DNA of 64,000 bases, taken from contig JAGBZD010000042.1 in assembly GCA_017628395.1 (NCBI GenBank), positions 6,386 to 70,385 of the forward strand, read 5' to 3'. A program made the position numbers and the translations under genes. The DNA is from Paludibacteraceae bacterium. Its GTDB lineage: Bacteria > Bacteroidota > Bacteroidia > Bacteroidales > Paludibacteraceae. Positions 3,748 to 64,000 of this stretch are shown piece by piece. The notes under the pieces are model-generated. The model was given only the letters and a program-made list of their open reading frames with translations, was not told the DNA's origin and made no database searches. How positions within the stretch are numbered: the first letter of the stretch is position 1; the number at the start of each line of letters is the position of its first letter.

Positions 3748-4019
3748 GCATTGACCAACGATTTTTTCATTGTTAGGGCGTGAGATGCCTCCACTCGATC
3801 CTCGATGCCACTAACTTCTCGGATGTTTCTCGAGGGAGACTCCTCCTTGCCGTCGGAGGGGATAGTGATTGTTAATTATGGGTGCAAAGATACGGAATAT
3901 TTGCGAGATTTGCAAGTGTTATGTAAAAAAAATGTGTAATATTATGTCGTCTGGTGTAGCATAGTGTCTAATATTTGGGGTACACTTCAAGGTGTTTCTA
4001 CGGTGTGCATATACTAATA

Positions 4020-21514: not shown

Positions 21515-21662
21515 CTGCTTTTTTTTCTAATTTCTGCAAAAATTGAAGCGAAAAATACATTATTTACATATTTTCTGCGCATACATATCATTATGTAATA
21601 AATAGAAGTTATCATTTTTTGAAAAATTACTCATTATGCTTGCGTGTTTGCATTTTTTGTAG

Positions 21663-21670
21663 TACCTTTG
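21663..21670 (+). promoter_or_regulatory. -7 box TACCTTTG for the 21686 gene
   Basis: Exact TAnnTTTG match. This argues the ORF-track start at 21644 is inside the promoter. Confidence 0.5.
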
Positions 21671-21685
21671 CAGGAAAATTTGATT

Positions 21686-22210
21686 ATGACCGAAGCTTCT
21701 ACACATTATGTTTATCAAGAGCCAGCCATTGAGTTCGTAACAGTGGCGGTGCAGTTATGCTTATACTTGGAGCAAGTAGCAGAGCAAGAGAAAGCCGATT
21801 TTATTGAGAAAATGCTATGCCTTTTACCACTGCTCTACCTCAAAGCGCGTTTGGTACCCAAAGCCTCCGAAGAAATGGACGGCTACTTAGAGCGTTTTGT
21901 GACAGAACAAGAATACGAGGACTTGCGCGCATTGCTTGCTCACAAATTAGGTTCAGATGATGCTTACTTGGAAGTATTTGTTGAGGATATGCGCTATTCC
22001 GATGAACCAATCACAGCGTTTATATCGGAAAATATTGCCGATATATATCAAGAACTCAAAGACTTGGCGTGCAACTACCAAACCCGCGAAGAGTCTGTGA
22101 TGAATGATGCGCTTGTGAATTGTATTGAAGCTTTTTATCAGCATTGGGGACAAAAACTATTGAATGTTCTTCGCCCCTTGCATGCTTTATCTCTTGTATG
22201 TGATGAATAA
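21686..22210 (+). CDS. DUF5063-like protein
   Basis: 174-aa acidic helical protein. By recollection it has conserved placement upstream of a 3'-5' exonuclease and RlmI in Bacteroidales. Confidence 0.5.
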   Translation: MTEASTHYVYQEPAIEFVTVAVQLCLYLEQVAEQEKADFIEKMLCLLPLLYLKARLVPKASEEMDGYLERFVTEQEYEDLRALLAHKLGSDDAYLEVFVEDMRYSDEPITAFISENIADIYQELKDLACNYQTREESVMNDALVNCIEAFYQHWGQKLLNVLRPLHALSLVCDE

Positions 22211-26298: not shown

Positions 26299-26322
26299 AA
26301 AACACGAAAAAACACACTAAAA

Positions 26323-26354
26323 CTTGCATAATTGCAAAGTTTTTAGTACCTTTG
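26323..26354 (+). promoter_or_regulatory. promoter (-33 CTTG, -7 TACCTTTG, 20-nt spacer)
   Basis: TACCTTTG lies at 26347-26354. Confidence 0.55.
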
Positions 26355-26391
26355 CAGCGTATTCTTGCGAAATTTAAAAAACAAATAATAT

Positions 26392-32308: not shown

Positions 32309-33772
32309 TTACTTACAATTCGATAGATTATGTAAGAACTTAGAGAATTCTGAAGAGGATACGCCTATTTTTTTCAAGATGCGATTCTTCAAAACACGGA
32401 TGCTGCCTTTAGTATAGCACATATAATCGGCAATTTCTACATCACTTAAATTAGGATAAATAAGACTTATCGTACAGAAGATTTTGTCTTGCTCAGATAA
32501 TGGTAGTGCGTCTAATTGAGTTGTCCAATCATGAAGCCACGGAGCGAGATCTTTTTTCAACACAGAATAGTTCCTCCAACGCTTATGTGGAGTATGATAT
32601 CTATCTACGATATTAGATAATTTCTCTCCAAATTGGCGATAATACAACTCTTGAGATAAACGAGCTTCTTGATTTTCTATGTGTGTAGATAATTGATCTA
32701 TCTGCTCACATGCTATGCGGTTGCGTTGGCGATACACGACTGCACCTATAGCTAAAATGATGCAAATAACTACTATAAGACTCAATATAATCCATACCCA
32801 ACGCAATGGGTGTGGATTCGATAAATATGTTTTTAGGCATTGATGAGCAAGAGAATAGCATTCATTCTGTTGTTCCAATAGGCGATTTATGTCTTCTCTT
32901 TGATGGGAATAGGTTGCCAATAACTCTATGTTATTATTCGACTTGGCATTTTCTATCAAAATATAATAAGCATTTGAACAATAGTTCGGATTATTTGAAT
33001 TAGCGACTATCCATTCTGCGTAAGGAACGGCACTTCCAATTTGATTAATCCGATAATATATCTGTAAAATCCTCAACCAACTAAAGCATTTGTCTTTTTT
33101 AGTTTGCCAATAATCTAATGCTTCTTGAAAATATACCAATGCAGAATCGTATTGATGCAATTCGTAGAAATAAAGTCCATTGGTTTCATAATAGCGCGCC
33201 ATATATGCACTATCCAATTGATATGTTTGGGCGACATTCAGCAAACTATCTGCATTTCCAAAGCGATGCAGATAAACATGGCATTGGCTTACATTCAACA
33301 AACTCTGAGCATAATACCACTCATTGCCACTCTCCTTGAAGGCGTTATTGGATCGTTCATAGAATATCAATGCTAAACTATCATTATCATTTTGCGCGCA
33401 GATATAGCCCATGCACGAGTTTACGCGTCCACGATAGATAGGGTCGTCTATCTGCAAGCGGTCTGCCTCAATATAACATTCTGCTGCTTCTACAATTTGA
33501 TCAGATAGACTATAGTTTCGCCCCATGTAATAATACGCCTTGCCCAGGGTATTGCTCATCAATAACCTGCCCACAGGATTATCTAAGCAGCGTATCGTTC
33601 TGCCTAATACTGCTGTATCATCATAAATCACATGCTCCGTTTGATCCAAACTATCTGCCAGAGCAATCACTTGTCTTGCTTCTTGCCAGTGACAAGCTGA
33701 CAGAACACAACACAAAACAAATATACAAACCATCCTGACAGGATGTAGAATATTTGATACCCTGGACAACAT
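32309..33772 (-). CDS. one-component membrane regulator: lipoprotein-type signal, TPR ectodomain, TM helix, LuxR/GerE-type HTH
   Basis: CVLSAC lipobox. TPR-like repeats. TM helix WVWIILSLIVVICIILAIGAVVY. C-terminal LSEQDKIF...LSDVEIADYMCYTKGSIRVLKNRILKKIGVS. Confidence 0.65.
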   Translation of the reverse strand: MLSRVSNILHPVRMVCIFVLCCVLSACHWQEARQVIALADSLDQTEHVIYDDTAVLGRTIRCLDNPVGRLLMSNTLGKAYYYMGRNYSLSDQIVEAAECYIEADRLQIDDPIYRGRVNSCMGYICAQNDNDSLALIFYERSNNAFKESGNEWYYAQSLLNVSQCHVYLHRFGNADSLLNVAQTYQLDSAYMARYYETNGLYFYELHQYDSALVYFQEALDYWQTKKDKCFSWLRILQIYYRINQIGSAVPYAEWIVANSNNPNYCSNAYYILIENAKSNNNIELLATYSHQREDINRLLEQQNECYSLAHQCLKTYLSNPHPLRWVWIILSLIVVICIILAIGAVVYRQRNRIACEQIDQLSTHIENQEARLSQELYYRQFGEKLSNIVDRYHTPHKRWRNYSVLKKDLAPWLHDWTTQLDALPLSEQDKIFCTISLIYPNLSDVEIADYMCYTKGSIRVLKNRILKKIGVSSSEFSKFLHNLSNCK

Positions 33773-41815: not shown

Positions 41816-41878
41816 AAAAAACGACATTATTATTCCGCTGTATTTTTGAAAAAAATTGCGTTATTGATTTATTTTTAG

Positions 41879-41886
41879 TACCTTTG
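41879..41886 (+). promoter_or_regulatory. -7 box TACCTTTG for the 41923 gene
   Basis: Exact motif match. Confidence 0.5.
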
Positions 41887-41922
41887 CAGCGGAAATTAGC
41901 AAAACCAACAACTATCGTCAGT

Positions 41923-48560: not shown

Positions 48561-48593
48561 GCTGGTTGTATGATGCAAAAAATCATAAATATA

Positions 48594-48625
48594 TTTGCAC
48601 ACTTGAAATAATTATAGTACCTTTG
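48594..48625 (+). promoter_or_regulatory. promoter (-33 TTTG, -7 TACCTTTG, 20-nt spacer)
   Basis: TTTG at 48594-48597 and TACCTTTG at 48618-48625. Confidence 0.65.
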
Positions 48626-48652
48626 CGCATTGATTTCAAAATCCACACGACA

Positions 48653-53255: not shown

Positions 53256-56200
53256 TTAAAGGCGAACGCCTTGTACATTATACTTCACACCATCACGGAT
53301 AATGATGAGTTGTCCGTTAACCACCATCTTCGTTGCTTGGTTGGTAGATACTACACCATCTTCAGTGAGGTTATCCACGCCTGTAGTGGTATTCTCACCT
53401 GCGGCACCCATCATCACACGACGACGACCAGGTATTGCTGCTACAGGTGTGGTATTGTTGTGAAGGGTATTTTTGTCGATGTATGCGCGATTAGCGTCCA
53501 ACCAGCAGCCTGCACCGCAGAGCCAGAACCTATTATCCGCAATCATGTAATTGCCTTGCAATACAGTTTCGTCTGTAATGCCATCGAATGTTCCTGTCAA
53601 GCCAGCTTTGCCTTCAATCGGGCTAAGAACCTCATCGCCTTCGTAATTTACAACGAGCTGATTGCTTGTTGCCTTGAAGATATATGGTTTACCAGCCACA
53701 AGTTCAGTCACTTCGTCTAACCAAATACCCATAGGAGTTACGCCATCGTCTTTCAATTGCAAGTATGAAATCTCATAGAACTCAGCACCGCTGTAGTTGT
53801 TTGAGCCATATGGCAAGCAGATTGTACCGAAGTAGCCGTTGGTCACAATGCGGGTGTATCTATGTTCGAGCCATTTAGCATAGAGCGTACCATTGGTATT
53901 TTCATCTACCGTAATAACTTCAGCACCAGAGAAATCAGGAGCTGCATACCAACCCTCAAAGAGATAGCCTTCTTTGTAAGGAGCGTTGAGTACGATTTCC
54001 TCAGTAGGCTGAGTTGGCATAGGGAATGTTTGACCCCAGTATGGTGCAAAGGCAGTAAGATGTGCTTCTACACCAGTAAAGTCAACGGCGTCAATATAGT
54101 CAGTTGAGTGCGCATTATCCTCACCAAAGAAGTTACCAATAGTGAATGTAAATACTCCCGCAGCAGATGTAGGTTGTGTCTTTACACCTTGAGCAACATC
54201 CATCTTCTTGTATTGGGTAGAAGCTACTGCATCAACATAAGTCGCCAACCATCCCCATTTAAGAGCATAGGTTGCATCAGCAAAAAGATTCCAGAATGCA
54301 ACTCGATCATCTACGCTGGTAATCGTTGTAGGAATACCTTTTGAAGAGTTGCCTATACCGAGTTGAGTTTCATAAGTAACATTTGTACGAGCAGAACCAG
54401 AGTATGCTCTCCAATCATCAAGAAGGGCGTTATACATATCCTTCTTGCTTGTCCAGCCGTACTTATTCCATACACCGTCATTGAGTTCGTAGGTGATTGC
54501 AGGAAGAGGTGCGAAGTTAGCTGTGAGAGTTACATCTTCTGCAGGAACAGTATATTCGAAACTTGCAGATATAGAAACCTCCTCTGCATCCTTAGTCCAA
54601 TTTACAAAGCGATAGCCAGTATTAGCAGTTGCTGTCAGAGTAACTTTTTCGCCAGCTTTGTATTCGCCGCCTTCGGTCACAGTACCCATCTCAGCAGGAT
54701 CTGCAACAACAGTTACTGTATATCTTGCTTCTTTCATGATTATTTGTGACTCAGGAGCAGGAACGGTGCAAATGTTATCCGTAGTAGGAACTACGAATTT
54801 ATACAAGCGTTCAGCACTTGCAGATGCCACATACAAGTCGCCTGCATAGTCAAATGCCACGCCGTCGATATTACCACCACCAAGCAGAGGTGTTGACATT
54901 AATTTGTTGATAGTTGGTTTGCCATTTCCGTCATATGCTACGATAAACAGAGTAACCATCTTATTACCAGCAAATGCCAAGATATTCTCATTCAGGTTAT
55001 AAGCCAATTGACCACGGTATGAAGAACCCGTATTGTTATTAGGGAACCAACCATTTAGATTTTCTTTAACAGCGAAATCTACCTCTCCATTCTTGTTTAC
55101 ATGAGAAAGAATAGGATAATCGTATCCGTAACGATTTTGCGCAATCCAAAGACCACCACGACCATCAGAAGCCATTGCATTATCATAAACAGCCCATTGG
55201 TTGTTCTTATCATGCGCAGCAAACAAGGTTACTTCGTCATCTTGTATTTTATAAATTTGTCCACCTGTCAAACCTGTATTTGCATTATCCATTACATACA
55301 ATGTACCCTCCGAATCAAAGCAGAGTGAATTGGCATATGTAATGCTACTACCCTTAATTAGGTTTTGTGCATTGCCTGCTAAATCATCTGGATTCATTGA
55401 ATAAATTGCCGTTGCAGGATCCTTGTAATAAGCAAATGCTACTTCACCTGTAACAGGGTCAACTGCTACACGGTGCATTTGTTGGCGAGTGATATTAATT
55501 TCATCAGTAGATGTAGGCTTGTTGGTGTTAAATGTTACATTTTGAGGAATGATACCTGTATATCCTGTAGCAGGTTGTACTTTCTCCAATGCTTGATTAT
55601 ACACAAACAATCCTGCGGTCATTTGTTTTGCCATTTCAGTAAGTCCGTCGTTACCACCTGTAGTACCTTCTGCCACATAGATGCGTCCGAAGTACATAGA
55701 GTTAGGGCTATTATCAACTGCCACACCTTGAGGAACATAGAAGTTGTATATACCCTTGTTTGGATCGGTGAGTTCAGCCATTTTAGCAATTGCTTCGCCT
55801 TCTACTTTCACAGACCAATAAATATCTTTATCACCTGTGAATGCTGACTTAGCGATAGTTACAGTCTTCGTTTCGCCTGCAGCAACAGTACCTACAACTT
55901 CTTGGGTTGGTGCAACTGAAGTACCCTCCTCATCGGTGAAGAAGATAGTAGCATTTCCAGCAGAAGTAGCAGTAAAGGTGAATGTATAATTAGCAGGATC
56001 AGCAACTGAATCTAACCTTAAATCATACGCCCACGCGCGAGGAGAAGCTTTCGCAAAAATAGCTTCTAAATTAACATTTTCTGTTGCAGTAAATGTACGA
56101 GTTTCCTCAGTTACGCCATCGCTCCATTGAACAAATACATAACCCGCATTAGCCGTAGCAGTCAATGTTACTTTTGTATCCTCGTAGTAAGTACCACCTG

Positions 56201-59200
56201 CTGTAACGGTACCCATATCGCTGTCATTAACGCTTGTATTGATAGTGTATGTAGGTATTGCTTCGAAGTTTGCTGTAAGATTAACATCACCCTCTATGGT
56301 AAACTTCAATGGGTTGTCAGTAGAGGTCTTATCGCCTGTCCAATTAACGAATCGGTAATGTTCTACAGCATTAGCGCTAAGTGTAACCTCAGTACCCTTT
56401 TCGTAAGTGCCATCACCTTCTACAGAACCCATAGCAGGGTCATTTACGATTACTGTCACTTCGCATTGTGTTCCTAACACCAGTTTTTGTGAAGCTGGAG
56501 CAGGAACGATGCAAATGTTATCAGCCGTTGGGATAGTATATTTATAGAATTTTTTAGTTCCAGTATTCACTACATACAAGTCACCTGCATAGTCAAATGC
56601 AAGTCCATCAATATTATTTGCTATTAACGGCGTTGTTGCTATATTGATCAAGGTTGGAACACCCGTCGTAGCATCAAATGCCACCGAATAGAGTTCCACT
56701 TTGCCATTACGACCTTGAGCCAAAATTTGACGCTCTGCATCGTATGCCAATGCCCCACGGTTACAACCTCCCTCAAAGCCATTGGTATTGTCTTTCCAAA
56801 CGGTATAATCCAACTCACCTGCTTTAGTTACATGTACAAGTTGATAGTAGGTATCCATTTGACCACGGTTGTGGCTTACCCAAAGACCACCATTGCCATC
56901 AGCAGCCAAACTGATTGAAGCATTTACCCATTTAGCATTTGGCTCTGTCAATTGAATTGCTTGACCATCAACAATCTTGTAGATTGTACCTTTACTTGCA
57001 GCAATATCCATCACATACAATGTACCTTCTGCATCGTAGCAGTGGGCTGCGGTACGAGTAAGACCAGCAACACCTTCCAATATGTTGGTAGCATTGCCTG
57101 CCATGTTTTCGCGGTCAATAACAAAGATTGCAGGATCATCTGCTACATTGTAGCAATATGTCAAATTACCAGTCTTTGGATCAATCTCCAAACGATGGAA
57201 CTTATTGCGATTATCACCCATTGTATATTCCGAAGGAAGAATAGGTTGAATGCCCGCATTTGCATCGGTATTCTTAATGGCTAATGTTTGATCAAAGATA
57301 AACAAACCAGCTGTTTGTGTTTTCGAACCTACTGTTCCATCTAATGCCATCTGAACATACACTTCACCAAAATATTTAGAGTCAGGATTGTTATCCACTA
57401 ATACACCCGTCATATCTACGAAGTCATAGATACCTTTGGCTTGATCGGTGATTTCAGCAACAGCAGTAATTTCTTCGCCATCCATCTTTACAGACCAATA
57501 TACATCTTTGGTAACACCTTCAAATGTTGTTTTAGCCAAAGTAACGGTATTTGAACCCGCAGCCACAGTACCTACTGCGTAAGGAGCCACCAATTCGTTA
57601 CCGTCTTTATCTGCAAAGAGCAATGTAGCCTCGCCCGCTGTGGTAGCCACGAACGAGAACTTGTAGTTATCACCGTCTGCCACTTGCGACAAATCATATG
57701 CCCACGCACGGTTAGGCACTTTCTCGAAGATTGCTTGCAGTGTTAACTCCGCAGCAGGGAATGTGCGAGTTGCGTCAGTCACATCGTCGCTCCATTTCAC
57801 GAAGCGATAGGTAGCTTTTGGAGTTGCTGCAATCGTAACCTCTTGACCCTCATCATATGTGCCACCACCAGTAACGGTACCCATATCCTCATCGTTAGAT
57901 GTTACAGTGATTGTTACTTGAGGAATAGCCTCGAAGGTTGCTATAAGATTAACATCACCCTCTATAGTAAACTTCAATGGGTTGTCGGTAGAGGTCATAT
58001 CGCCTGTCCAGTTAACGAATCGGTGATGTGCTACAGGATTAGGTGTAAGTGTAACCTCTGCACCCTTTTCATATTGACCAGCACCTTCCACAGAACCCAT
58101 AGCTTGGTCATTGACAGTTACTGTCACCTCGCATTGTGTTCCTAATACCAGTTTCTGTGAAGATGGAGCAGGTACAGTGCAGATATTCTCATCGGTTGGC
58201 AAGGTGAACTTTTGGAATTTTTCTTTCGAAGAGTTTACCACATACAAGTCACCAGCATAGTCAAATGCAAGACCATCGATATTGGTTCCAATATTAGCAT
58301 CTGCAATAGTATGCAATGGAGTCAAAGTGATAGTAGGCTCATAGCTTACAGTATAAAGTTCTACCTTACCATTTCTACCTTGTGCTAATATCTGACGCTC
58401 TACATCGTATGCTAATGCGCCACGCGCAGAACTTCCATCAAAACCTTGTGGGTTACTTGAATTAACATACCAATCAATCGTACCTCCACTGGTAACATGA
58501 GTTAGTTGATAATAGGTATCCATTTGACCACGGTTTTGACTTACCCAAAGACCACCACGACCATCAGACGCCATCGTGATTGAGGCGTTAGCCCAATTTG
58601 CATTAGCTACAAATTGTTTAGCAACACCATCTACAATTTTATAAATAGCACCCGTGTTAGGATATGAAGCATTGTCCATCACATACAGCGTACCGTTCTC
58701 ATCAAAGCAATGTGCATTAGTATGAGTAAGTCCAGTGACACCTTCAACTAAGTTGGTAACATTGCCTGCCATATTTTCGCGGTCAATAGCAAAGACAGCA
58801 GGACTACTTGCAATATTATAACTATATACAAGATCACCTGTGTTAGGATTAATATTCAAACGATGGAACTTGTTGCGATCACCACCTATGGTATATCCCG
58901 CAGGAAGAGATGGTTGAATACCTACATTAGGGTTGCTATTTAATCCATCTAATTTTTGGTCAAACAAGAATAGACCTGGTGTTTGCGCCTTACCTTGGGT
59001 TGTTCCCCCAAGGGACATTTGTACATAAATTTTACCAAAGTCTTTTGAGTCGGTATTATTGTCCACAACCACACCCATCATATTGTAGAAGTCATAGATG
59101 CCGCGAGATTGGTCAGTTATCTCAGAGATGGCAGGAATAGCCTCGCCGTCCATCTTTACAGACCAATATACATCTTTGTTTTCGGTAAAGGCTGCTTTTG

Positions 59201-61163
59201 CTACTAGTACGGTGTTAGCACCAACTGCTACTGGACCTACATCATGAGATGTAGGAGCTACTGGATTGCCGTCTATGTCTGCAAACAACAAGGTAGCAGT
59301 ACCTGCAGCAGTAGTATTGAATGTAAACTTATAGTTGTCGCCATCCTCTACTACCTTTAAATCATACGCCCATGCGCGAGGAGCGATGGCTTGGAAGTTG
59401 GCAGTATAAGTTGCATCACCTGACACGGTAACAGTGCGGGTAGCGTTCTCCTCGCCATCTGCCCAACCCGCAAACACATAACCTGATTTAGCAGTAGCTT
59501 TCAGTGTAGCAGATTCGTTAGCATAATAGGTATCACCACCAGTAACAGTACCCATATTCTCATCATTTGGAACGGCAGTGATGGTATATTTGGTATGCTC
59601 TTGGAAGTTAGCAGTAATAGTCATGTCGCTATTTACCGTTACAGTCAATGGGTTTTCGGTAGAGCTTACATCACCTGTCCAACCAGTAAACTCATAGTGG
59701 TCATTAGCTACAGCAGTAAGTTCTGCGGAAGCTCCATCTTCATATGTACCCAAATTACCTGACACGCTACCCATGGTAGGGTCGTTAACATTGGTTGTTA
59801 TCGTGTATAATGCAACAGTTGGCTCAACTTTTGTAACCACATCTGCTTTCTTTGCAGGAACTTCACAAGTGTTGTTGGTGGTAGGTAGTGTGTATTGTAC
59901 AAGAAGCATTACATTGGAGTCTGTAGAACCATATGAAGCGCCTACACATGCAATAAGATTGCCCGCATAATCAAGCGATAAGGTACTAACTTGCGCATAA
60001 GAAATAGAATGAGTCTCAGATAATTCAAGTGTTGGTTTGTTTCCATTCCATGTTATATTATACTCTACTATGTTATTTGAGCCACTTATATACAACTTAC
60101 TATTATCTGCATTCACAGCCAAACCAGCACCTTTACACATCTGCTTATCTTGTTGAAATTGAAGTGTACCATTTTTATCAATAAATACCAATTCCGTACG
60201 CGAACCTACAGCAACAGCATCATTTTGACTAATCCACACTCCTTTTTCTGTAGCAGCAAACGCGTTATTGGTTGATACATTGATGCTTGCAAATCCTTTA
60301 CAAATCCATGTTGGTACATTGCTCCATGATTTCAAGATACTACCATCAGGTTGTCCAATATGATAGCTCACAGCAGCCGAAGGGTTTGAACCATCTTCCA
60401 TCATAGTGTAAAGAACCATATTTGCTCCCGAACCAAAGACACCTACACCTGATGTAGAACTACCGATTTCTTCACCGTTGGTATTGGTAAATAAACCATT
60501 GCTAGCACGAGTTCCATCATAAAATTGTGTACATGTTGTAAGGTCAGAAGGGTCTACTACATAAATTCCTGATCTCTCAGCATCTGTATAGTCAGCTAAA
60601 AATAGCGTACCATCTGCCGCTACAGCAGGACGAGAATATCCATTACGACTTCTACCTAACTTATACACATCGTTACCAACCAATTGAAGTGATGGAGTAT
60701 AAACATATAAACCACCATTGCTATCAGTTTTTCGTCTATCTGTAACATAAACTCGTCCAAAATAGTTGGACTCTGGGCTATTATCAATCGCCGCATGTCC
60801 TCGACCGTATTTTTTGGCACCAGTGTACACTGCTTCGAATGCAGTAACTTCTGCAGCTGATAACTCTACTGACCAATTGAGTTGCTGACCATCATTGCCT
60901 GGCAAACTATACTCAGCAATTTCAACTTCGTTTTTGCCCAATACAGGATTTGTCAATGCTATCTCTCCTACCAACTCACTGGAGGTTGCATCATAAAATA
61001 TGATCTTACCAGATGTAGGAGTTTCATTTGCTGTGAAAGAAAAGGTATAAACCTTATCCACCAGCGCAGACGAAAGATCATAAGCGTATATTCGCTTAGG
61101 TTGTGCTGCAAACGAGAACAAACTCATCGTTATCGCAACTAAAAATAGAGTAAGTTTTTTCAT
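53256..61163 (-). CDS. giant secreted surface protein (2635 aa): signal peptide, four supermodules of about 555 aa, C-terminal region with a CTD-like tail
   Basis: Signal peptide MKKLTLFLVAITMSLFSFAA. Each module contains an AYDL-initiated Ig-like segment, a beta-propeller/NHL-like segment (IDGLAFDYAGDLYVVN) and two InlB-B-repeat-like units (MGTVTGGG.Y..G..V.L.A....GY.F..W). The protein ends KMVVNGQLIIIRDGVKYNVQGVRL. Confidence 0.85.
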   Translation of the reverse strand: MKKLTLFLVAITMSLFSFAAQPKRIYAYDLSSALVDKVYTFSFTANETPTSGKIIFYDATSSELVGEIALTNPVLGKNEVEIAEYSLPGNDGQQLNWSVELSAAEVTAFEAVYTGAKKYGRGHAAIDNSPESNYFGRVYVTDRRKTDSNGGLYVYTPSLQLVGNDVYKLGRSRNGYSRPAVAADGTLFLADYTDAERSGIYVVDPSDLTTCTQFYDGTRASNGLFTNTNGEEIGSSTSGVGVFGSGANMVLYTMMEDGSNPSAAVSYHIGQPDGSILKSWSNVPTWICKGFASINVSTNNAFAATEKGVWISQNDAVAVGSRTELVFIDKNGTLQFQQDKQMCKGAGLAVNADNSKLYISGSNNIVEYNITWNGNKPTLELSETHSISYAQVSTLSLDYAGNLIACVGASYGSTDSNVMLLVQYTLPTTNNTCEVPAKKADVVTKVEPTVALYTITTNVNDPTMGSVSGNLGTYEDGASAELTAVANDHYEFTGWTGDVSSTENPLTVTVNSDMTITANFQEHTKYTITAVPNDENMGTVTGGDTYYANESATLKATAKSGYVFAGWADGEENATRTVTVSGDATYTANFQAIAPRAWAYDLKVVEDGDNYKFTFNTTAAGTATLLFADIDGNPVAPTSHDVGPVAVGANTVLVAKAAFTENKDVYWSVKMDGEAIPAISEITDQSRGIYDFYNMMGVVVDNNTDSKDFGKIYVQMSLGGTTQGKAQTPGLFLFDQKLDGLNSNPNVGIQPSLPAGYTIGGDRNKFHRLNINPNTGDLVYSYNIASSPAVFAIDRENMAGNVTNLVEGVTGLTHTNAHCFDENGTLYVMDNASYPNTGAIYKIVDGVAKQFVANANWANASITMASDGRGGLWVSQNRGQMDTYYQLTHVTSGGTIDWYVNSSNPQGFDGSSARGALAYDVERQILAQGRNGKVELYTVSYEPTITLTPLHTIADANIGTNIDGLAFDYAGDLYVVNSSKEKFQKFTLPTDENICTVPAPSSQKLVLGTQCEVTVTVNDQAMGSVEGAGQYEKGAEVTLTPNPVAHHRFVNWTGDMTSTDNPLKFTIEGDVNLIATFEAIPQVTITVTSNDEDMGTVTGGGTYDEGQEVTIAATPKATYRFVKWSDDVTDATRTFPAAELTLQAIFEKVPNRAWAYDLSQVADGDNYKFSFVATTAGEATLLFADKDGNELVAPYAVGTVAAGSNTVTLAKTTFEGVTKDVYWSVKMDGEEITAVAEITDQAKGIYDFVDMTGVLVDNNPDSKYFGEVYVQMALDGTVGSKTQTAGLFIFDQTLAIKNTDANAGIQPILPSEYTMGDNRNKFHRLEIDPKTGNLTYCYNVADDPAIFVIDRENMAGNATNILEGVAGLTRTAAHCYDAEGTLYVMDIAASKGTIYKIVDGQAIQLTEPNAKWVNASISLAADGNGGLWVSHNRGQMDTYYQLVHVTKAGELDYTVWKDNTNGFEGGCNRGALAYDAERQILAQGRNGKVELYSVAFDATTGVPTLINIATTPLIANNIDGLAFDYAGDLYVVNTGTKKFYKYTIPTADNICIVPAPASQKLVLGTQCEVTVIVNDPAMGSVEGDGTYEKGTEVTLSANAVEHYRFVNWTGDKTSTDNPLKFTIEGDVNLTANFEAIPTYTINTSVNDSDMGTVTAGGTYYEDTKVTLTATANAGYVFVQWSDGVTEETRTFTATENVNLEAIFAKASPRAWAYDLRLDSVADPANYTFTFTATSAGNATIFFTDEEGTSVAPTQEVVGTVAAGETKTVTIAKSAFTGDKDIYWSVKVEGEAIAKMAELTDPNKGIYNFYVPQGVAVDNSPNSMYFGRIYVAEGTTGGNDGLTEMAKQMTAGLFVYNQALEKVQPATGYTGIIPQNVTFNTNKPTSTDEINITRQQMHRVAVDPVTGEVAFAYYKDPATAIYSMNPDDLAGNAQNLIKGSSITYANSLCFDSEGTLYVMDNANTGLTGGQIYKIQDDEVTLFAAHDKNNQWAVYDNAMASDGRGGLWIAQNRYGYDYPILSHVNKNGEVDFAVKENLNGWFPNNNTGSSYRGQLAYNLNENILAFAGNKMVTLFIVAYDGNGKPTINKLMSTPLLGGGNIDGVAFDYAGDLYVASASAERLYKFVVPTTDNICTVPAPESQIIMKEARYTVTVVADPAEMGTVTEGGEYKAGEKVTLTATANTGYRFVNWTKDAEEVSISASFEYTVPAEDVTLTANFAPLPAITYELNDGVWNKYGWTSKKDMYNALLDDWRAYSGSARTNVTYETQLGIGNSSKGIPTTITSVDDRVAFWNLFADATYALKWGWLATYVDAVASTQYKKMDVAQGVKTQPTSAAGVFTFTIGNFFGEDNAHSTDYIDAVDFTGVEAHLTAFAPYWGQTFPMPTQPTEEIVLNAPYKEGYLFEGWYAAPDFSGAEVITVDENTNGTLYAKWLEHRYTRIVTNGYFGTICLPYGSNNYSGAEFYEISYLQLKDDGVTPMGIWLDEVTELVAGKPYIFKATSNQLVVNYEGDEVLSPIEGKAGLTGTFDGITDETVLQGNYMIADNRFWLCGAGCWLDANRAYIDKNTLHNNTTPVAAIPGRRRVMMGAAGENTTTGVDNLTEDGVVSTNQATKMVVNGQLIIIRDGVKYNVQGVRL

Positions 61164-61228: not shown

Positions 61229-61260
61229 CAAAGTTAGTGAAAATAAACAATATATGCAAA
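61229..61260 (-). promoter_or_regulatory. promoter of the giant gene (-7 TAACTTTG, -33 TTTG, 20-nt spacer)
   Basis: The reverse complement of 61229-61236 is TAACTTTG. The reverse complement of 61257-61260 is TTTG. Confidence 0.65.
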
Positions 61261-61339
61261 TAAATTGCAAAAAAAGTTAATTTTTCACTAAAAAAGGCTT
61301 ATTTTTGGGGAATTTATATACCAGTTGACACTATGCGTT

Positions 61340-61580
61340 GTTTTCCTTGTCGCGCCAGGAAGTTGATTGGCGCGAAAGTTGTTTGTGTTGTTTTTTAATA
61401 AATAATTCTTGTTGTTTTCGTTGTAGTGTCCGCTCGTATATAGTTCCCTTTTTTTCTATCCCTTCTCAATTTTTGTTTTGAGTTGCCAATGCGCCAAGCG
61501 CATTCTTCCAACTCAAACAAAATATACTCCTTGAATTGACGATAATTGACAACTCTATTGACGACAATTGTCTTTAACAA
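61340..61580 (-). repeat. structured non-coding cassette, copy 1 (241 bp)
   Basis: Near-identical to 61703-61943, offset by 363 bp. Contains hairpins at 61350-61375 and 61471-61522, and four AATTG(A/T)C sites at 61534-61572. Confidence 0.9.
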
Positions 61581-61702
61581 ATCCCTGAGCGCCCAATGTG
61601 TTGTTTTGGGCGCAATGTTGTTGGAATAAGTTGTTGGTGTTGTTGATTAAAGTAATCCTTGTTGTCTTTCGTTATAGTGTCAAGTCTGTTGCACCATACA
61701 TA

Positions 61703-61943
61703 GTTTTCCTTGTCGCGCCAGGAAGTTGATTGGCGCGAAAGTTGTTTATGTTGTTTTTTAATAAATAATTCTTGTTGTTTTCGTTGTAGTGTCCGCTTGT
61801 ATATAGTTCCCTTTTTTTCTATCCCTTCTCAATTTTTGTTTTGAGTTGCCAATGCGCCAAGCGCATTCTTCCAACTCAAACAAAATATATTCCTTGAATT
61901 GACAATAATTGACAACCCAATTGACATGAATTGTCTTCAATAA
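61703..61943 (-). repeat. structured non-coding cassette, copy 2 (241 bp)
   Basis: By eye it differs from copy 1 at only a handful of positions. Hairpins at 61713-61738 and 61834-61885. Confidence 0.9.
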
Positions 61944-61964
61944 TTCTGGCAACAGAGATAATAA

Positions 61965-62978
61965 TTACGGTCTATAAAAACTCTGCTCCAACAGCGCTTG
62001 CGCATTCGATTCGTTCAGCAGATCATAAATAGAAACATCTTTATTGTGGCGCATATAGCTATCCACAATACGCCACCCTACCCACTGACCCAAACGACCG
62101 GGGGAGTCTTGTGTCACCTCTGCCGTGAAAGGACCTTCGTTCAGATAAGAACTAAGAACCGTTGACTCGGTCTTAAATAAGTCGCGCTTCTGCATTATGC
62201 GATTCCAAATAGCTTGCTCGTAATGCACACACCATTCCCACTGCGCTTGCGTATAGCCCATCACATTCCATACGGGCTCATCTGGAAGCAACTGAGAAAG
62301 CAAAAACAATTGCTTTCCGCGGAAAATCATCTGATCCAACAACCTATTGGTCGTGCTGTTATACGCCATATGATACGACAAATACAACTTCAGCACATCC
62401 ACCACTACACACTCCTTGCGCATCGTCGGTTTCTGATAGTCGTACACCACCTGATTGTAATACGGATAGTCGCTACCCAAATACATATCCACTCCCACAC
62501 CAATCATATCATCGTAGTACATCACCGATGAATTAAAACCCGATACAAACAGATACACCGTAGGAACCACCCATTCTGGATAGAGATAATGCAATCGCGA
62601 AAAAGCAGTATTCAGTGCCGTTTGCAATGTATCAATATTGGCAAACATTGTTTGAGCAAGCGCATTCGTTTGCGCAAAACCCATCGCTGTATCCGTCAGA
62701 AAGTCCACATAGAGCTGACTAAAATACGCAGTATCCTCAGACGGAACACCCAATATACCCTCCACAAAAACAGGCATAAACGCCTCGTAATCAGCATACA
62801 GCTGGCTAATATCCGAATAGGCACTATCCGCTCTAACCGCCAACTGCGCACTATCAAAGCGCACTACTTCCACCGCTATAGGCTCAATATCCTTGGGGAT
62901 ATATTCATACTTATTCCCGCACCCGCAGAGCAACCCCACGAGCATAGCAATACAAAGTATGTTATTCCGTTTTCTCAT
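61965..62978 (-). CDS. GldB-like lipoprotein (DUF2268-like)
   Basis: Lipobox LLCGCG. The VEVVRFDSAQL opening resembles the GldB ERFDK motif by recollection. Start moved to 62978. Confidence 0.5.
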   Translation of the reverse strand: MRKRNNILCIAMLVGLLCGCGNKYEYIPKDIEPIAVEVVRFDSAQLAVRADSAYSDISQLYADYEAFMPVFVEGILGVPSEDTAYFSQLYVDFLTDTAMGFAQTNALAQTMFANIDTLQTALNTAFSRLHYLYPEWVVPTVYLFVSGFNSSVMYYDDMIGVGVDMYLGSDYPYYNQVVYDYQKPTMRKECVVVDVLKLYLSYHMAYNSTTNRLLDQMIFRGKQLFLLSQLLPDEPVWNVMGYTQAQWEWCVHYEQAIWNRIMQKRDLFKTESTVLSSYLNEGPFTAEVTQDSPGRLGQWVGWRIVDSYMRHNKDVSIYDLLNESNAQALLEQSFYRP

Positions 62979-63012
62979 CACCTTGACTTTCAACTGTAGG
63001 CAAAGCCGTTCT

Positions 63013-63675
63013 CTAAACTGCGCCCTTAGCGCAAATTCCATCCTTCATCTCTATCACCCGATCACTAATCTCTGCCAATTCCTTGTCATGGGTCACGATA
63101 ATGATTGTCTGTCCATACTGCTCACGCATCTGCAATAGCAACTTGTGCAGTTCTTTCTTATTGCTCTCGTCCAGACTACCACTGGGTTCATCTGCCAATA
63201 TCACATCGGGCGACATCATCATCGCTCGCGCTGCTGCCACACGCTGTTTCTCGCCACCCGACAACTGATTGGGCTTATGCGCAAGGCGCTCTGCCATACC
63301 TAATTCCGTCAGCAGTTGCATAGCGCGTTGCTCCGCGTCTTTCTCACTCATACGAGCAATCAGAGCGGGCATCATCACATTCTCTAACGCTGTAAACTCA
63401 GGCAACAACTGATGAAACTGAAAAATAAAACCTATATGCCGATTGCGAAAATCTGCCAACTCCTTCTCCTTCAGCGCAAATACATCCACTCCGTCAATCA
63501 CCACACTACCCGAATCGGGCATATCAAGCGTACCAATAATCTGAAGCAGGGTCGTCTTTCCTGCCCCACTCTTACCGATAATACTAACAATCTCGCCTTT
63601 CTCTACAGTCAAATCCACTCCTTTCAATACTTGCAAAGAGTCAAAAGACTTGTGTATGTTTCTAACTTCTATCAT
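63013..63675 (-). CDS. ABC transporter ATP-binding protein (LolD/MacB-type)
   Basis: Walker [10 protein letters not shown], signature [14 protein letters not shown], Walker [12 protein letters not shown]. Confidence 0.85.
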
Positions 63676-63743
63676 CGTTTGTTAATTCGCAGTTTGACAT
63701 TTTGTTATTCTCACTCGTGTCCACTAAAAATCATCTATCTCTT

Positions 63744-63850
63744 TATTTTGTTTTGAGTTGCCAATGCGCCAAGCGCATTCTTCCAACTCAAACAAAATAT
63801 GCTCCTTGAATTGACGATAATTGACAATAAAATTGACCTTAATTGTTGTC
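63744..63850 (-). repeat. structured cassette core, copy 3 (compound hairpin plus four phased sites)
   Basis: Hairpin at 63746-63797 is identical in stem sequence to copies 1 and 2. TTGAC starts at 63811, 63821 and 63833, and TTGTT at 63843. Confidence 0.85.
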
Positions 63851-64000
63851 TAAAATAAAATCACTGTCAACTCGTATATAGTTCCTTTTAGTTGAATTGG
63901 TTTAATTCGCTCAATTCGCCGTTTCAAGTAAATTCCGTTTTCACCTTTCAGTTTCCCCTCAACGCATCATACAACGGTATTGTATCCAGAAAACAATGTT

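Follow-up and report, generated by a model that had tools for sequence, protein, structure and literature searches.

A mosaic, MITE-like repeat family as the probable origin of the duplicated non-coding cassette between gldB and a giant surface-protein gene of a ruminant-gut Paludibacteraceae bacterium

The region separating gldB from the giant surface-protein gene in the investigated window (the whole 64-kb stretch of DNA that was analysed) is probably occupied by an array, nested or tandem, of a MITE-like mosaic repeat which is non-coding, lineage-specific and distributed among the Paludibacteraceae of ruminant guts. The cassette found there represents a previously undescribed repeat family, albeit one of a known kind, namely a MITE. 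The elementary mobile unit comprises 180–270 nt, has a 23-nt terminal inverted repeat (M1) at its ends, is accompanied by an 8-bp AT-rich target duplication, and carries as its cargo a module (M3) made of phased heptads and a compound hairpin, with leader modules (M2) often being attached to it.

The flanking genes are encoded on the minus strand, and on this strand a direct repeat of 255 nt (61329-61583 and 61692-61946) with 94% identity and a start-to-start offset of 363 nt is present. It contains the tandemly duplicated 241-bp cassette which the initial annotation had reported with this very offset, the 241-nt cores of copies A and B differing at 11 positions. In minus-strand order each cassette consists of four heptads, a TATATTTTG box running into a 52-nt compound hairpin, a GGGAACTATATAC(G/A)AGCGGACAC motif, a CA-rich tract and the hairpin CGCGCCA-N10-TGGCGCG. 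The four phased AATTGAC-type sites claimed for each copy are clearly recovered. In copy A the sites start at 61534, 61544, 61556 and 61566, the third being a TATTGAC variant of the AATTGWC heptad, while those of copy B start at 61897, 61907, 61919 and 61929, which corresponds in both copies to a minus-strand spacing of 10/12/10 nt. Equally reproducible are the compound hairpin (61471-61522 and, once more, 61834-61885), the GC hairpin (61350-61375 and 61713-61738) and the separate hairpin GCGCCCAA-N9-TTGGGCGC (61589-61613) of the 122-nt spacer between the copies, which also possesses a CA tract of its own. For the cassette motifs, shuffled sequence predicts 0 chance matches, and 10 of the 25 GWCAATT heptads of the 64-kb window fall in its three M3 modules. 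The two ORFs of 61 and 64 codons, which had been regarded as spurious, do exist, but they traverse the hairpins and are not kept in variant copies. While the structures listed in this earlier inventory hold, it had overlooked a third, partial copy (C) at 63746-63886 upstream of lolD, an inverted GGAACTATATAC...GACAC (GGGAAC...GACAC) motif at 61309-61331, just beyond the coordinates it covered, and the nature of this motif as a terminal inverted repeat. A tRNA/tmRNA scan of the window returned a tRNA-Arg only, which is unrelated to the cassette.

The array is composed of three modules. M1, a 23-nt motif of the consensus GGGAAyTATATACnnGTTGACAC, occurs in both orientations and, within the window, only beside M3. 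M2 consists of a CA-rich tract and a GC hairpin, of which there are two types, and M3 of four phased GWCAATT heptads, the TATATTTTG box and the 52-nt compound hairpin. On the right the array ends in M1' (61309-61331, plus strand), an inverted copy of the terminal repeat which reads GGAATTTATATACCAGTTGACAC, was detected as a fuzzy match to the M1 consensus and abuts the ancestral sequence AAAAATAAGCC, as revealed by comparing this junction with the empty site of two related contigs (L027 and L028, see below). All further modules lie on the minus strand. M2a of copy A (61332-61425) combines an unstructured CA-rich tract with the GC hairpin at 61350-61375, whose loop is AUCAACUUCC, and is documented by nhmmer copies elsewhere, by folding and by stem covariation. 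Next to it are an internal M1 (61426-61448, GGGAACTATATACGAGCGGACAC), assigned by motif match, and a short tail ATTGAGAAGGGATAGAAAAAAA (61449-61470) joining the compound hairpin to M1, the identical junction being present in L005 and L026. M3 of copy A (61471-61574; nhmmer E=9e-32, covariance-model score 90.8 bits, covariation) holds its heptads at 61534-61572, the box at 61526-61518 and the hairpin at 61471-61522. The spacer (61578-61690) is an M2b module with counterparts in L005, L008, L013, L015 and L026, and at its 5' end a remnant M1'/M1 junction, GTGCAACAGACTTGACAC, can be read. Copy B (61692-61946) is a composite of M2a (61697-61790, GC hairpin 61713-61738), M1 (61789-61811) and M3 (61834-61937). 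Copy C, recognised by its M1 (63864-63886) and M3 (63746-63848) matches and by comparison with L028, resides in an insertion of about 260 nt (63676-63935) between the remnant of the ancestral lolD promoter and the lolD start codon. The neighbouring genes, all on the minus strand, encode a giant Flg_new_2 repeat protein of 2635 amino acids (53256-61163), the GldB lipoprotein (61965-63041), for which an exact look-up yielded no identical protein on record, and an ABC ATPase of the LolD type (63013-63675). The canonical Bacteroidetes promoter of the giant gene, TTTG-N20-TAACTTTG (61229-61260, minus strand), is present as the initial annotation had stated; it is located outside the repeat and is kept in the empty-site relatives.

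The search of relatives with the hairpin which had been proposed in the initial annotation was performed with the core pattern GAATGCGCNNNGCGCATTGGCAAC in one genome per species and disclosed 23 loci, at unrelated places, in 17 MAGs. With the exception of one labelled Bacteroidaceae bacterium these MAGs bear the label Paludibacteraceae, and those of their titles which name a host indicate ruminant guts. One MAG contains seven exact hairpin-core matches on six contigs, and the total number of M3 copies in the DNA of the fetched loci amounts to about 40 (nhmmer profile plus covariance model). Alignment of the copies reveals that order and number of the modules vary from locus to locus, that foreign small repeats have been inserted within modules and that M2 and M3 are found independently of one another at other loci. 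In one M3 subfamily all four heptads change jointly to GACAATT. A model in which the two alternative tails following M3 arise by inversion was rejected, as the tails are not reverse complements of each other. That the initial annotation did not recognise the element as a named RNA family is in line with Rfam. In a permissive scan of the region the best matches reached 12–18 bits compared to thresholds of 39–376, and a scan of L005, L008, L013 and L015 at gathering thresholds detected solely a tmRNA in L005. Since neither the hairpin nor the 661-nt array matches anything in viral contigs, phage records or plasmid records, an origin from phage or plasmid is unsupported.

Indication of mobility comes from simple units of the architecture M1-M3-M1' which measure 182, 240 and 272 nt, are non-coding, carry inverted M1 at both ends (L004, L005 and L014) and are flanked by 8-bp AT-rich direct target-site duplications. 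In L004 the duplication reads TAAAAAAA on the left and TAAAAAAA on the right (8/8), in L014 TATTTTTA and TATTTTTA (8/8), and in L005 TAAAAATA and TAAAAAGA (7/8); it has to be considered that duplications are readable in these three simple units only and that the flanks of all three are A/T-rich. Some other units (L015 and L016) harbour M1 in direct orientation, and the array of the window, whose left end is devoid of M1, has no clean target duplication.

To compare the locus itself, contigs encoding GldB homologues were looked up. In L027 and L028, whose GldB is 88% identical, the gene order lolD-gldB-giant gene is the same as in the window. The spacer between gldB and the giant gene, however, measures merely 158 nt there and, while sharing the promoter TTTTCACTAACTTTGCGCGG, contains neither M1 nor M3. 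In the window, the array of about 640 nt follows the stop codon of gldB and precedes AAAAATAAGCC; at the empty site the sequence is ...GAATAAAAAATAAGCC. A metagenome scan with the promoter pattern of the giant gene provided one useful locus (L026) besides two chance matches (L024 and L025). L026, with gldB DNA 97% identical to that of the window, has three M3 modules and arranges them differently, and a further arrangement is seen at the orthologous locus L013, which belongs to another MAG. Relatives with GldB identities of at most 79% lack the giant gene. In these, gldB is followed by an aminotransferase gene which in the window lies beyond the giant gene.

A comparable situation is observed upstream of lolD, where three relatives possess three versions of the region. 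In L028 a canonical promoter, TACCTTTG, is located about 30 nt from the ATG. In the window the promoter box has decayed to TACCGTTG (63979-63972) and is followed by the insertion of about 260 nt with M1 and M3, and in L027 and L029 an M2a module immediately precedes the lolD ATG. As copy C is situated between promoter remnant and ATG of lolD, the array must tolerate read-through.

Taken together, the small size (182–272 nt) and non-coding nature of the simple units, the terminal inverted repeats, the target-site duplication and the dispersed copies with presence/absence polymorphism are the attributes of a MITE. The MITE-like reading, one of three offered by the initial annotation, is borne out by dispersal, 23-nt inverted ends, 8-bp duplications, the empty site and the difference in copy number at the same locus. 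Neither a transposase nor a longer M1-ended element was found in the available sequence (ORFs of the fetched loci, 8-kb flanks), and an all-against-all blastp comparison of the locus ORFs disclosed no recurrent transposase or recombinase, as only the Flg_new_2 giants and the genes of a cryptic island recur. For this reason, we infer mobility only from target duplications, empty site and dispersal. The array entered an ancestral 158-nt spacer which already bore the canonical promoter of the giant gene, and later insertion together with unequal recombination would have enlarged or shrunk it, resulting in two M3 modules here and three in the 97%-identical allele.

This history bears on whether the cassettes constitute a selected, dedicated control region of the giant gene, i.e. 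domesticated repeats providing stacked factor-dependent promoters with long leaders. We consider such a role unlikely, even though all M3 modules at this place face the giant gene in three alleles, elements neighbour Flg_new_2 giant genes at 5–6 independent loci, transcription units of the cryptic island described below have the heptad block and box ahead of them, and the hairpin structure is conserved. The relatives at 88% identity own the giant gene and its canonical promoter without any cassette, near-identical alleles differ in number and order of the modules, no canonical promoter is found within the cassettes, and modules are also present at unrelated housekeeping genes and at convergent gene ends. 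Since close relatives do without the array it is not part of the giant gene's own control region, and since the empty-site relatives keep the identical promoter it is dispensable for this gene.

Invertible promoters ahead of surface-protein genes are common in gut Bacteroidales. At the present locus M1 occurs in both orientations (61426-61448 versus 61309-61331), so that a site-specific recombinase acting at the inverted M1 copies could flip the 95-nt M2a segment 61332-61425 in the manner of an invertible switch or shufflon, thereby placing a terminator-like hairpin between upstream transcription and the giant gene; the flipped M2a would read as a GC stem with a T-rich tail. Nevertheless, we regard this as extremely unlikely. 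A single orientation is seen in the window, in L013, in L026 and in other loci, none of the 12 scanned ORFs between 35.2 and 63.7 kb encodes a recombinase, and the canonical promoter sits downstream of the putative switch. Moreover, M1-bounded units are flanked by target duplications, which inversion does not make.

The hairpins turned out to be real structures, as judged from compensatory changes in the stems of both M3 and M2a. In a model-fitted alignment of 35 distinct M3 hairpin sequences 93.9% of the cells are paired and 11 of the 21 pairs show double changes. None of 500 shuffles performed as well, and slid partners were paired at 39–48%. In an unfitted MAFFT alignment 91.3% of the cells remain paired with double changes in seven pairs. 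There are four sequence types. They differ in the upper outer stem and the inner stem, where all replacements are compensated, and have in common the lower stem (UUUUGUUU/AAACAAAA) and the internal loop (GAAG.../...GG). For the GC hairpin of M2a 91.7% of the cells are paired with double changes in four of eight pairs, and its loop, AAUCAAC(U/A)UyC, is conserved. Both strands fold equally well (z about -3.5), and the wobble cells of M3 comprise five G·U versus three A·C, a count for which poorly aligned type-2 rows were discounted by hand and which separates neither the two strands nor RNA from DNA as the acting form. Action as RNA would be likely. Among the results which the initial annotation itself had named as refuting a cassette with a dedicated regulatory role, scattered copies with target duplications are present, whereas hairpin arms varying without compensation are not. 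A coding reading of the hairpin (AAGGAG followed by TTG, opening a 42-codon frame) was tried as well and discarded, for changes in the stems compensate one another instead of being synonymous, and stops occur in variant hairpins; type-2 copies read TTG TTT TTG CTC TAA across this ORF.

The genes beside the copies are unrelated in function, including lolD, truA, a gene for an FGE-sulfatase-domain protein, a Vut_1 transporter gene, a 2-hydroxyacid dehydrogenase gene and the Flg_new_2 giants. They form no regulon. At about five of roughly 13 distinct loci, according to a reading of the locus table, M3 points at the 3' end of a convergent gene. A recurrent neighbour is a cryptic island with VapE, DUF5675 or related genes, which a reading of the ORF clusters places in about 10 of the 23 loci. 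It encodes a Cro/C1 HTH protein, a VapE-like helicase, a DUF5675 protein and several small paralogous basic proteins. In NCBIfam one of the island proteins has weak HTH matches below threshold and the remaining nine have none; PHROGs contributed helicase/primase and repressor labels only. Immediately upstream of island genes, M3-like and M2a-like modules are found, the heptad block plus box occurring in both orientations ahead of genes or short units. One island copy shows a perfect TATATTTG which is followed, by eye, after about 85 nt by a stem and T-run terminator. In another one heptads and box are kept while the hairpin is unrelated, and one island hairpin copy comes without heptads. M3 of the island occurs without M1. 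M3 may have originated in the island and been taken up by the MITE later, or the other way round.

Four phased direct repeats beside a long palindrome, equal folding of both strands and the frequent company of a VapE-like helicase could alternatively point to a DNA site, with heptads and palindrome serving as replication iterons and cruciform or as a recombination site for the VapE-like helicase/primase, of which the chromosomal copies would be decayed relics. We deem this barely conceivable, given that islands hold several heptad blocks in both orientations, each before a gene or short transcript, that one hairpin copy of the island is devoid of heptads and that many near-identical copies reside in the core chromosome far from island genes.

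The arrangement in the island is of importance for the suggestion of the initial annotation that the cassettes are stacked extra promoters. This suggestion gains from the heptad block and box preceding transcription units in the island, and loses from the cassettes themselves. The canonical pattern TTTG-N17-23-TAnnTTTG has 14 matches in the window as opposed to 2.6 expected (about 5-fold), among them the one at 61229-61260, but none inside the cassettes. The TATATTTTG box deviates from a canonical -7 element at one position, its spacing is wrong in most copies and its TA is lost in several of them. A scan for promoters of the sigma-70 type, which is not relevant to this phylum, did not exceed shuffled sequence. 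The heptads stop about 10 bp upstream of the box. From this spacing, the placement in the island and the joint switch of all four heptads, M3 would appear to be a portable factor-dependent promoter/operator with a structured leader. As to M2a, it is located 10–20 nt before real start codons in four cases, namely lolD in two species and the DUF5675 gene of the island at two loci, and therefore a leader role in translation or mRNA stability is suggested for it.

That the cassettes are tandem sRNA genes, a further reading of the initial annotation, is very unlikely. Such a gene would produce a stable RNA starting at TATATTTTG with a 5' hairpin, a sponge-like CA-rich tract of about 100 nt and a 3' GC hairpin, and the predicted sense RNA does show two stable hairpins around a single-stranded CA-rich tract of about 100 nt (z = -3.5). 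In addition, the CA-rich sRNA CrcZ is matched weakly, below its threshold, and the terminator read by eye behind one island copy would suit a short transcript. Yet, no terminator was found on the sense strand of the cassettes. The GC hairpins at 61350-61375 and 61713-61738, lacking a U tract on this strand, are terminator-like on the plus (antisense) strand only. Besides, the matches to CrcZ and IsrM score 15 bits compared to gathering scores of 95 and 376, and the independence of M2 and M3 from each other elsewhere speaks against one joint RNA gene.

Coming back to the MITE-like array, its cargo could function as follows. M3 and M2 would be control-region modules common to the VapE-helicase island, where they stand before each small gene. 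The heptads, direct repeats set about one helical turn apart, would replace the upstream promoter element in the manner of a Pho box, making transcription factor-dependent, and the transcript would begin with a hairpin that is protective or binds protein. In the window, the cassettes would add conditional transcription, or transcription coming from lolD-gldB would simply pass through them into the giant gene, whose expression presumably does not require them. A more far-reaching scenario, which appears possible although rather doubtful, is the spreading of a regulon. A factor encoded by the island or a response regulator of the host would bind the heptads, candidates being the Cro/C1 HTH protein of the island, its 206-aa protein with a C-terminal HTH and OmpR/PhoB-type regulators of the host. 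MITE transposition would disperse operator-promoter and protein-binding leader hairpin, thereby wiring scattered genes, among them several giant Flg_new_2 adhesin genes and the lolD-gldB operon, into the regulon of island or factor. Separately, M2a, the conserved loop of which (AAUCAACUUCC) is similar to the 16S 3' end, would serve as a mobile module for initiation or regulation of translation in a phylum without Shine-Dalgarno pairing.

Several known repeat families resemble the one described here. The Correia elements (CREE) of Neisseria are non-coding, have terminal inverted repeats of about 25 nt and a TA target duplication, are promoter-like and form hairpins when co-transcribed (PMC10969869). 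Small non-coding size, terminal inverted repeats with target duplications, many copies concentrated upstream of genes and internal protein-binding sites are common to both, the sites in our case being putative. In contrast, the two are not similar in sequence, the present family has an AT-rich target duplication of 8 bp instead of TA, and its cargo unites a block of four phased heptads with a compound hairpin that covaries on its own, while Correia elements form a single long hairpin between their terminal inverted repeats. Closer in taxonomic terms is the BrickBuilt MITE of Porphyromonas gingivalis, for which promoter elements have been shown by reporter assay (PMC4596501). Likewise from Bacteroidota, it is, as here, restricted to a species or clade, invariably intergenic, modular (leader, internal repeats and tail) and ends in small inverted repeats (PMC4596501). 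Its core, however, is a spacer-less 23-nt minisatellite rather than a set of 7-nt heptads at 10–12-bp phase beside a structured hairpin, and it is unrelated in sequence and comes from another host family. BrickBuilt of P. gingivalis was the only example of a MITE-like repeat in Bacteroidota found by literature search. The BOX, RUP and SPRITE repeats of Streptococcus pneumoniae share modularity (boxA-B-C versus M1/M2/M3), variable number and order of modules, clustering, mutual insertion and stable structures (PMC10969869). BOX belongs to another phylum, though, bears no sequence relation and has no phased heptad block. With regard to the heptads, promoters of the Pho-box type which depend on PhoB/OmpR-family regulators contain 7-bp direct repeats with a period of about 10–11 bp which end about 10 bp upstream of the downstream element and replace the upstream one. 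The period of the direct repeats and their distance to the box in M3 correspond to this arrangement, a functional analogy only, as no response regulator has been identified here, the neighbouring genes are no phosphate regulon and binding to the heptads is putative.

MITE-like repeats are poorly catalogued in Bacteroidota, and the present family is abundant in uncultured Paludibacteraceae of ruminant guts. Assemblies break at this repeat, as several loci which end within it show. Furthermore, it remodels the 5' regions of core genes such as lolD and clusters beside genes of giant surface proteins, which are typical strain-variable loci. For annotation this means that the cassettes are to be treated as repeats, neither as genes nor as gene-specific riboswitch-like leaders. 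Their cargo modules combine conserved covarying structures with phased heptads and recur between the genes of a cryptic helicase island, as its putative control regions. Should a regulator bind the heptads, one would have here a clear example of transposition spreading a regulon, and this in a phylum whose promoters and translation initiation are unusual.

The M2a type of module M2 (a CA-rich tract followed by a GC hairpin) combines AAAAACAACATAAACAACTT with a GC stem around the loop AAUCAACwUyC and with a tail rich in purines. It is located 10–20 nt upstream of the real start codons of both lolD and the DUF5675 gene of the cryptic island, a VapE-helicase gene cluster which itself carries M3-like and M2-like modules. 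Copies near start codons are present in the related loci L027 (185-262), L029 (3301-3378), L002 (3409-3486) and L009 (~1415-1340). The conserved M2a loop matches the 3' end of 16S rRNA (GAUCACCUCCUU) at 8 of 13 positions, a likeness which may be coincidental. In the window, a ~260-nt insertion with repeats (63676-63935) lies between the lolD promoter box and the lolD ATG. The ancestral form of this box, TACCTTTG, is intact in L028, an empty-site relative, while the window version reads TACCGTTG (63972-63979). Short repeats of the GCGAATT type are also observed within this insertion and, in L006, L012 and L023, 3' of M3, the module formed by four phased heptads, a -7-like box and a 52-nt compound hairpin.

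The cryptic island is conserved in L001 (2710-7673) and L015 (457-4615) and is also found in L002, L003, L009, L011, L017, L018, L020 and L022. Its gene products comprise a Cro/C1 HTH protein, a VapE-like helicase, a DUF5675 protein, a 143-aa membrane protein and at least four small paralogous basic proteins of ~90–110 aa, the latter matching no family in Pfam, PHROG or NCBIfam. Hairpin or heptad modules are present upstream of each island gene. The island itself may represent an integrative element, a satellite or a defective phage. On the minus strand of L015 (3079-2960), a heptad block with a perfect TATATTTG box is followed, after ~85 nt, by a GC stem and a T run which, read by eye, constitute a candidate intrinsic terminator; the entire unit is a candidate island sRNA. 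The 487-aa TPR-containing protein encoded at window 32309-33772 has homologues in the ORFs flanking the island in L001 and L011, with 71% DNA identity between L011 7268-7839 and window 33125-33702.

Within the giant Flg_new_2 gene, tandem repeats of ~1668 bp (window 54827-59178) share 61–87% identity. Relatives whose GldB is at most 79% identical harbour no giant gene between gldB and the aminotransferase gene. Furthermore, a promoter-like family of ~50 nt with the 3' end TTTTTAGTACCTTTGC(AG) recurs in the window (21623-21688, 26307-26372, 41839-41904 and 48578-48626) and represents the canonical -7 box within an extended conserved context.

The tmRNA gene of L005 (2247-2638; 151.5 bits) lies at a contig end amid no fewer than four M3 copies, together with three units led by M1, the 23-nt terminal inverted repeat, all within 3.4 kb. 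The ssrA neighbourhood is therefore a repeat hot spot. L005 also contains, read on the minus strand, two copies (~1700-1745 and ~2125-2165) of a recurrent small repeat, the palindrome CCCCAAAAA-N-TTTTTCGGGGACCCC, whose variants include CCCCACAAATTGCAAATTTGCGGGGACCCC. Further copies occur in L022, L013 (10-45) and L001 (6830-6875), the last placed within the loop of an M2a hairpin.

Another small repeat, unrelated to the M1/M2/M3 family, has the ends CTTATCTCGCC...GGCGAGATAAG and the internal sequence GATCGTTCGAGCCG. It is inserted both into M3 heptad blocks (L003 842-896; L006 ~3750-3805) and into M2, where it occupies the loop of the GC hairpin (L020 ~640-720; L013 1-87). Since this repeat is nested within modules of both types, these genomes carry several MITE-like families which interact with one another.
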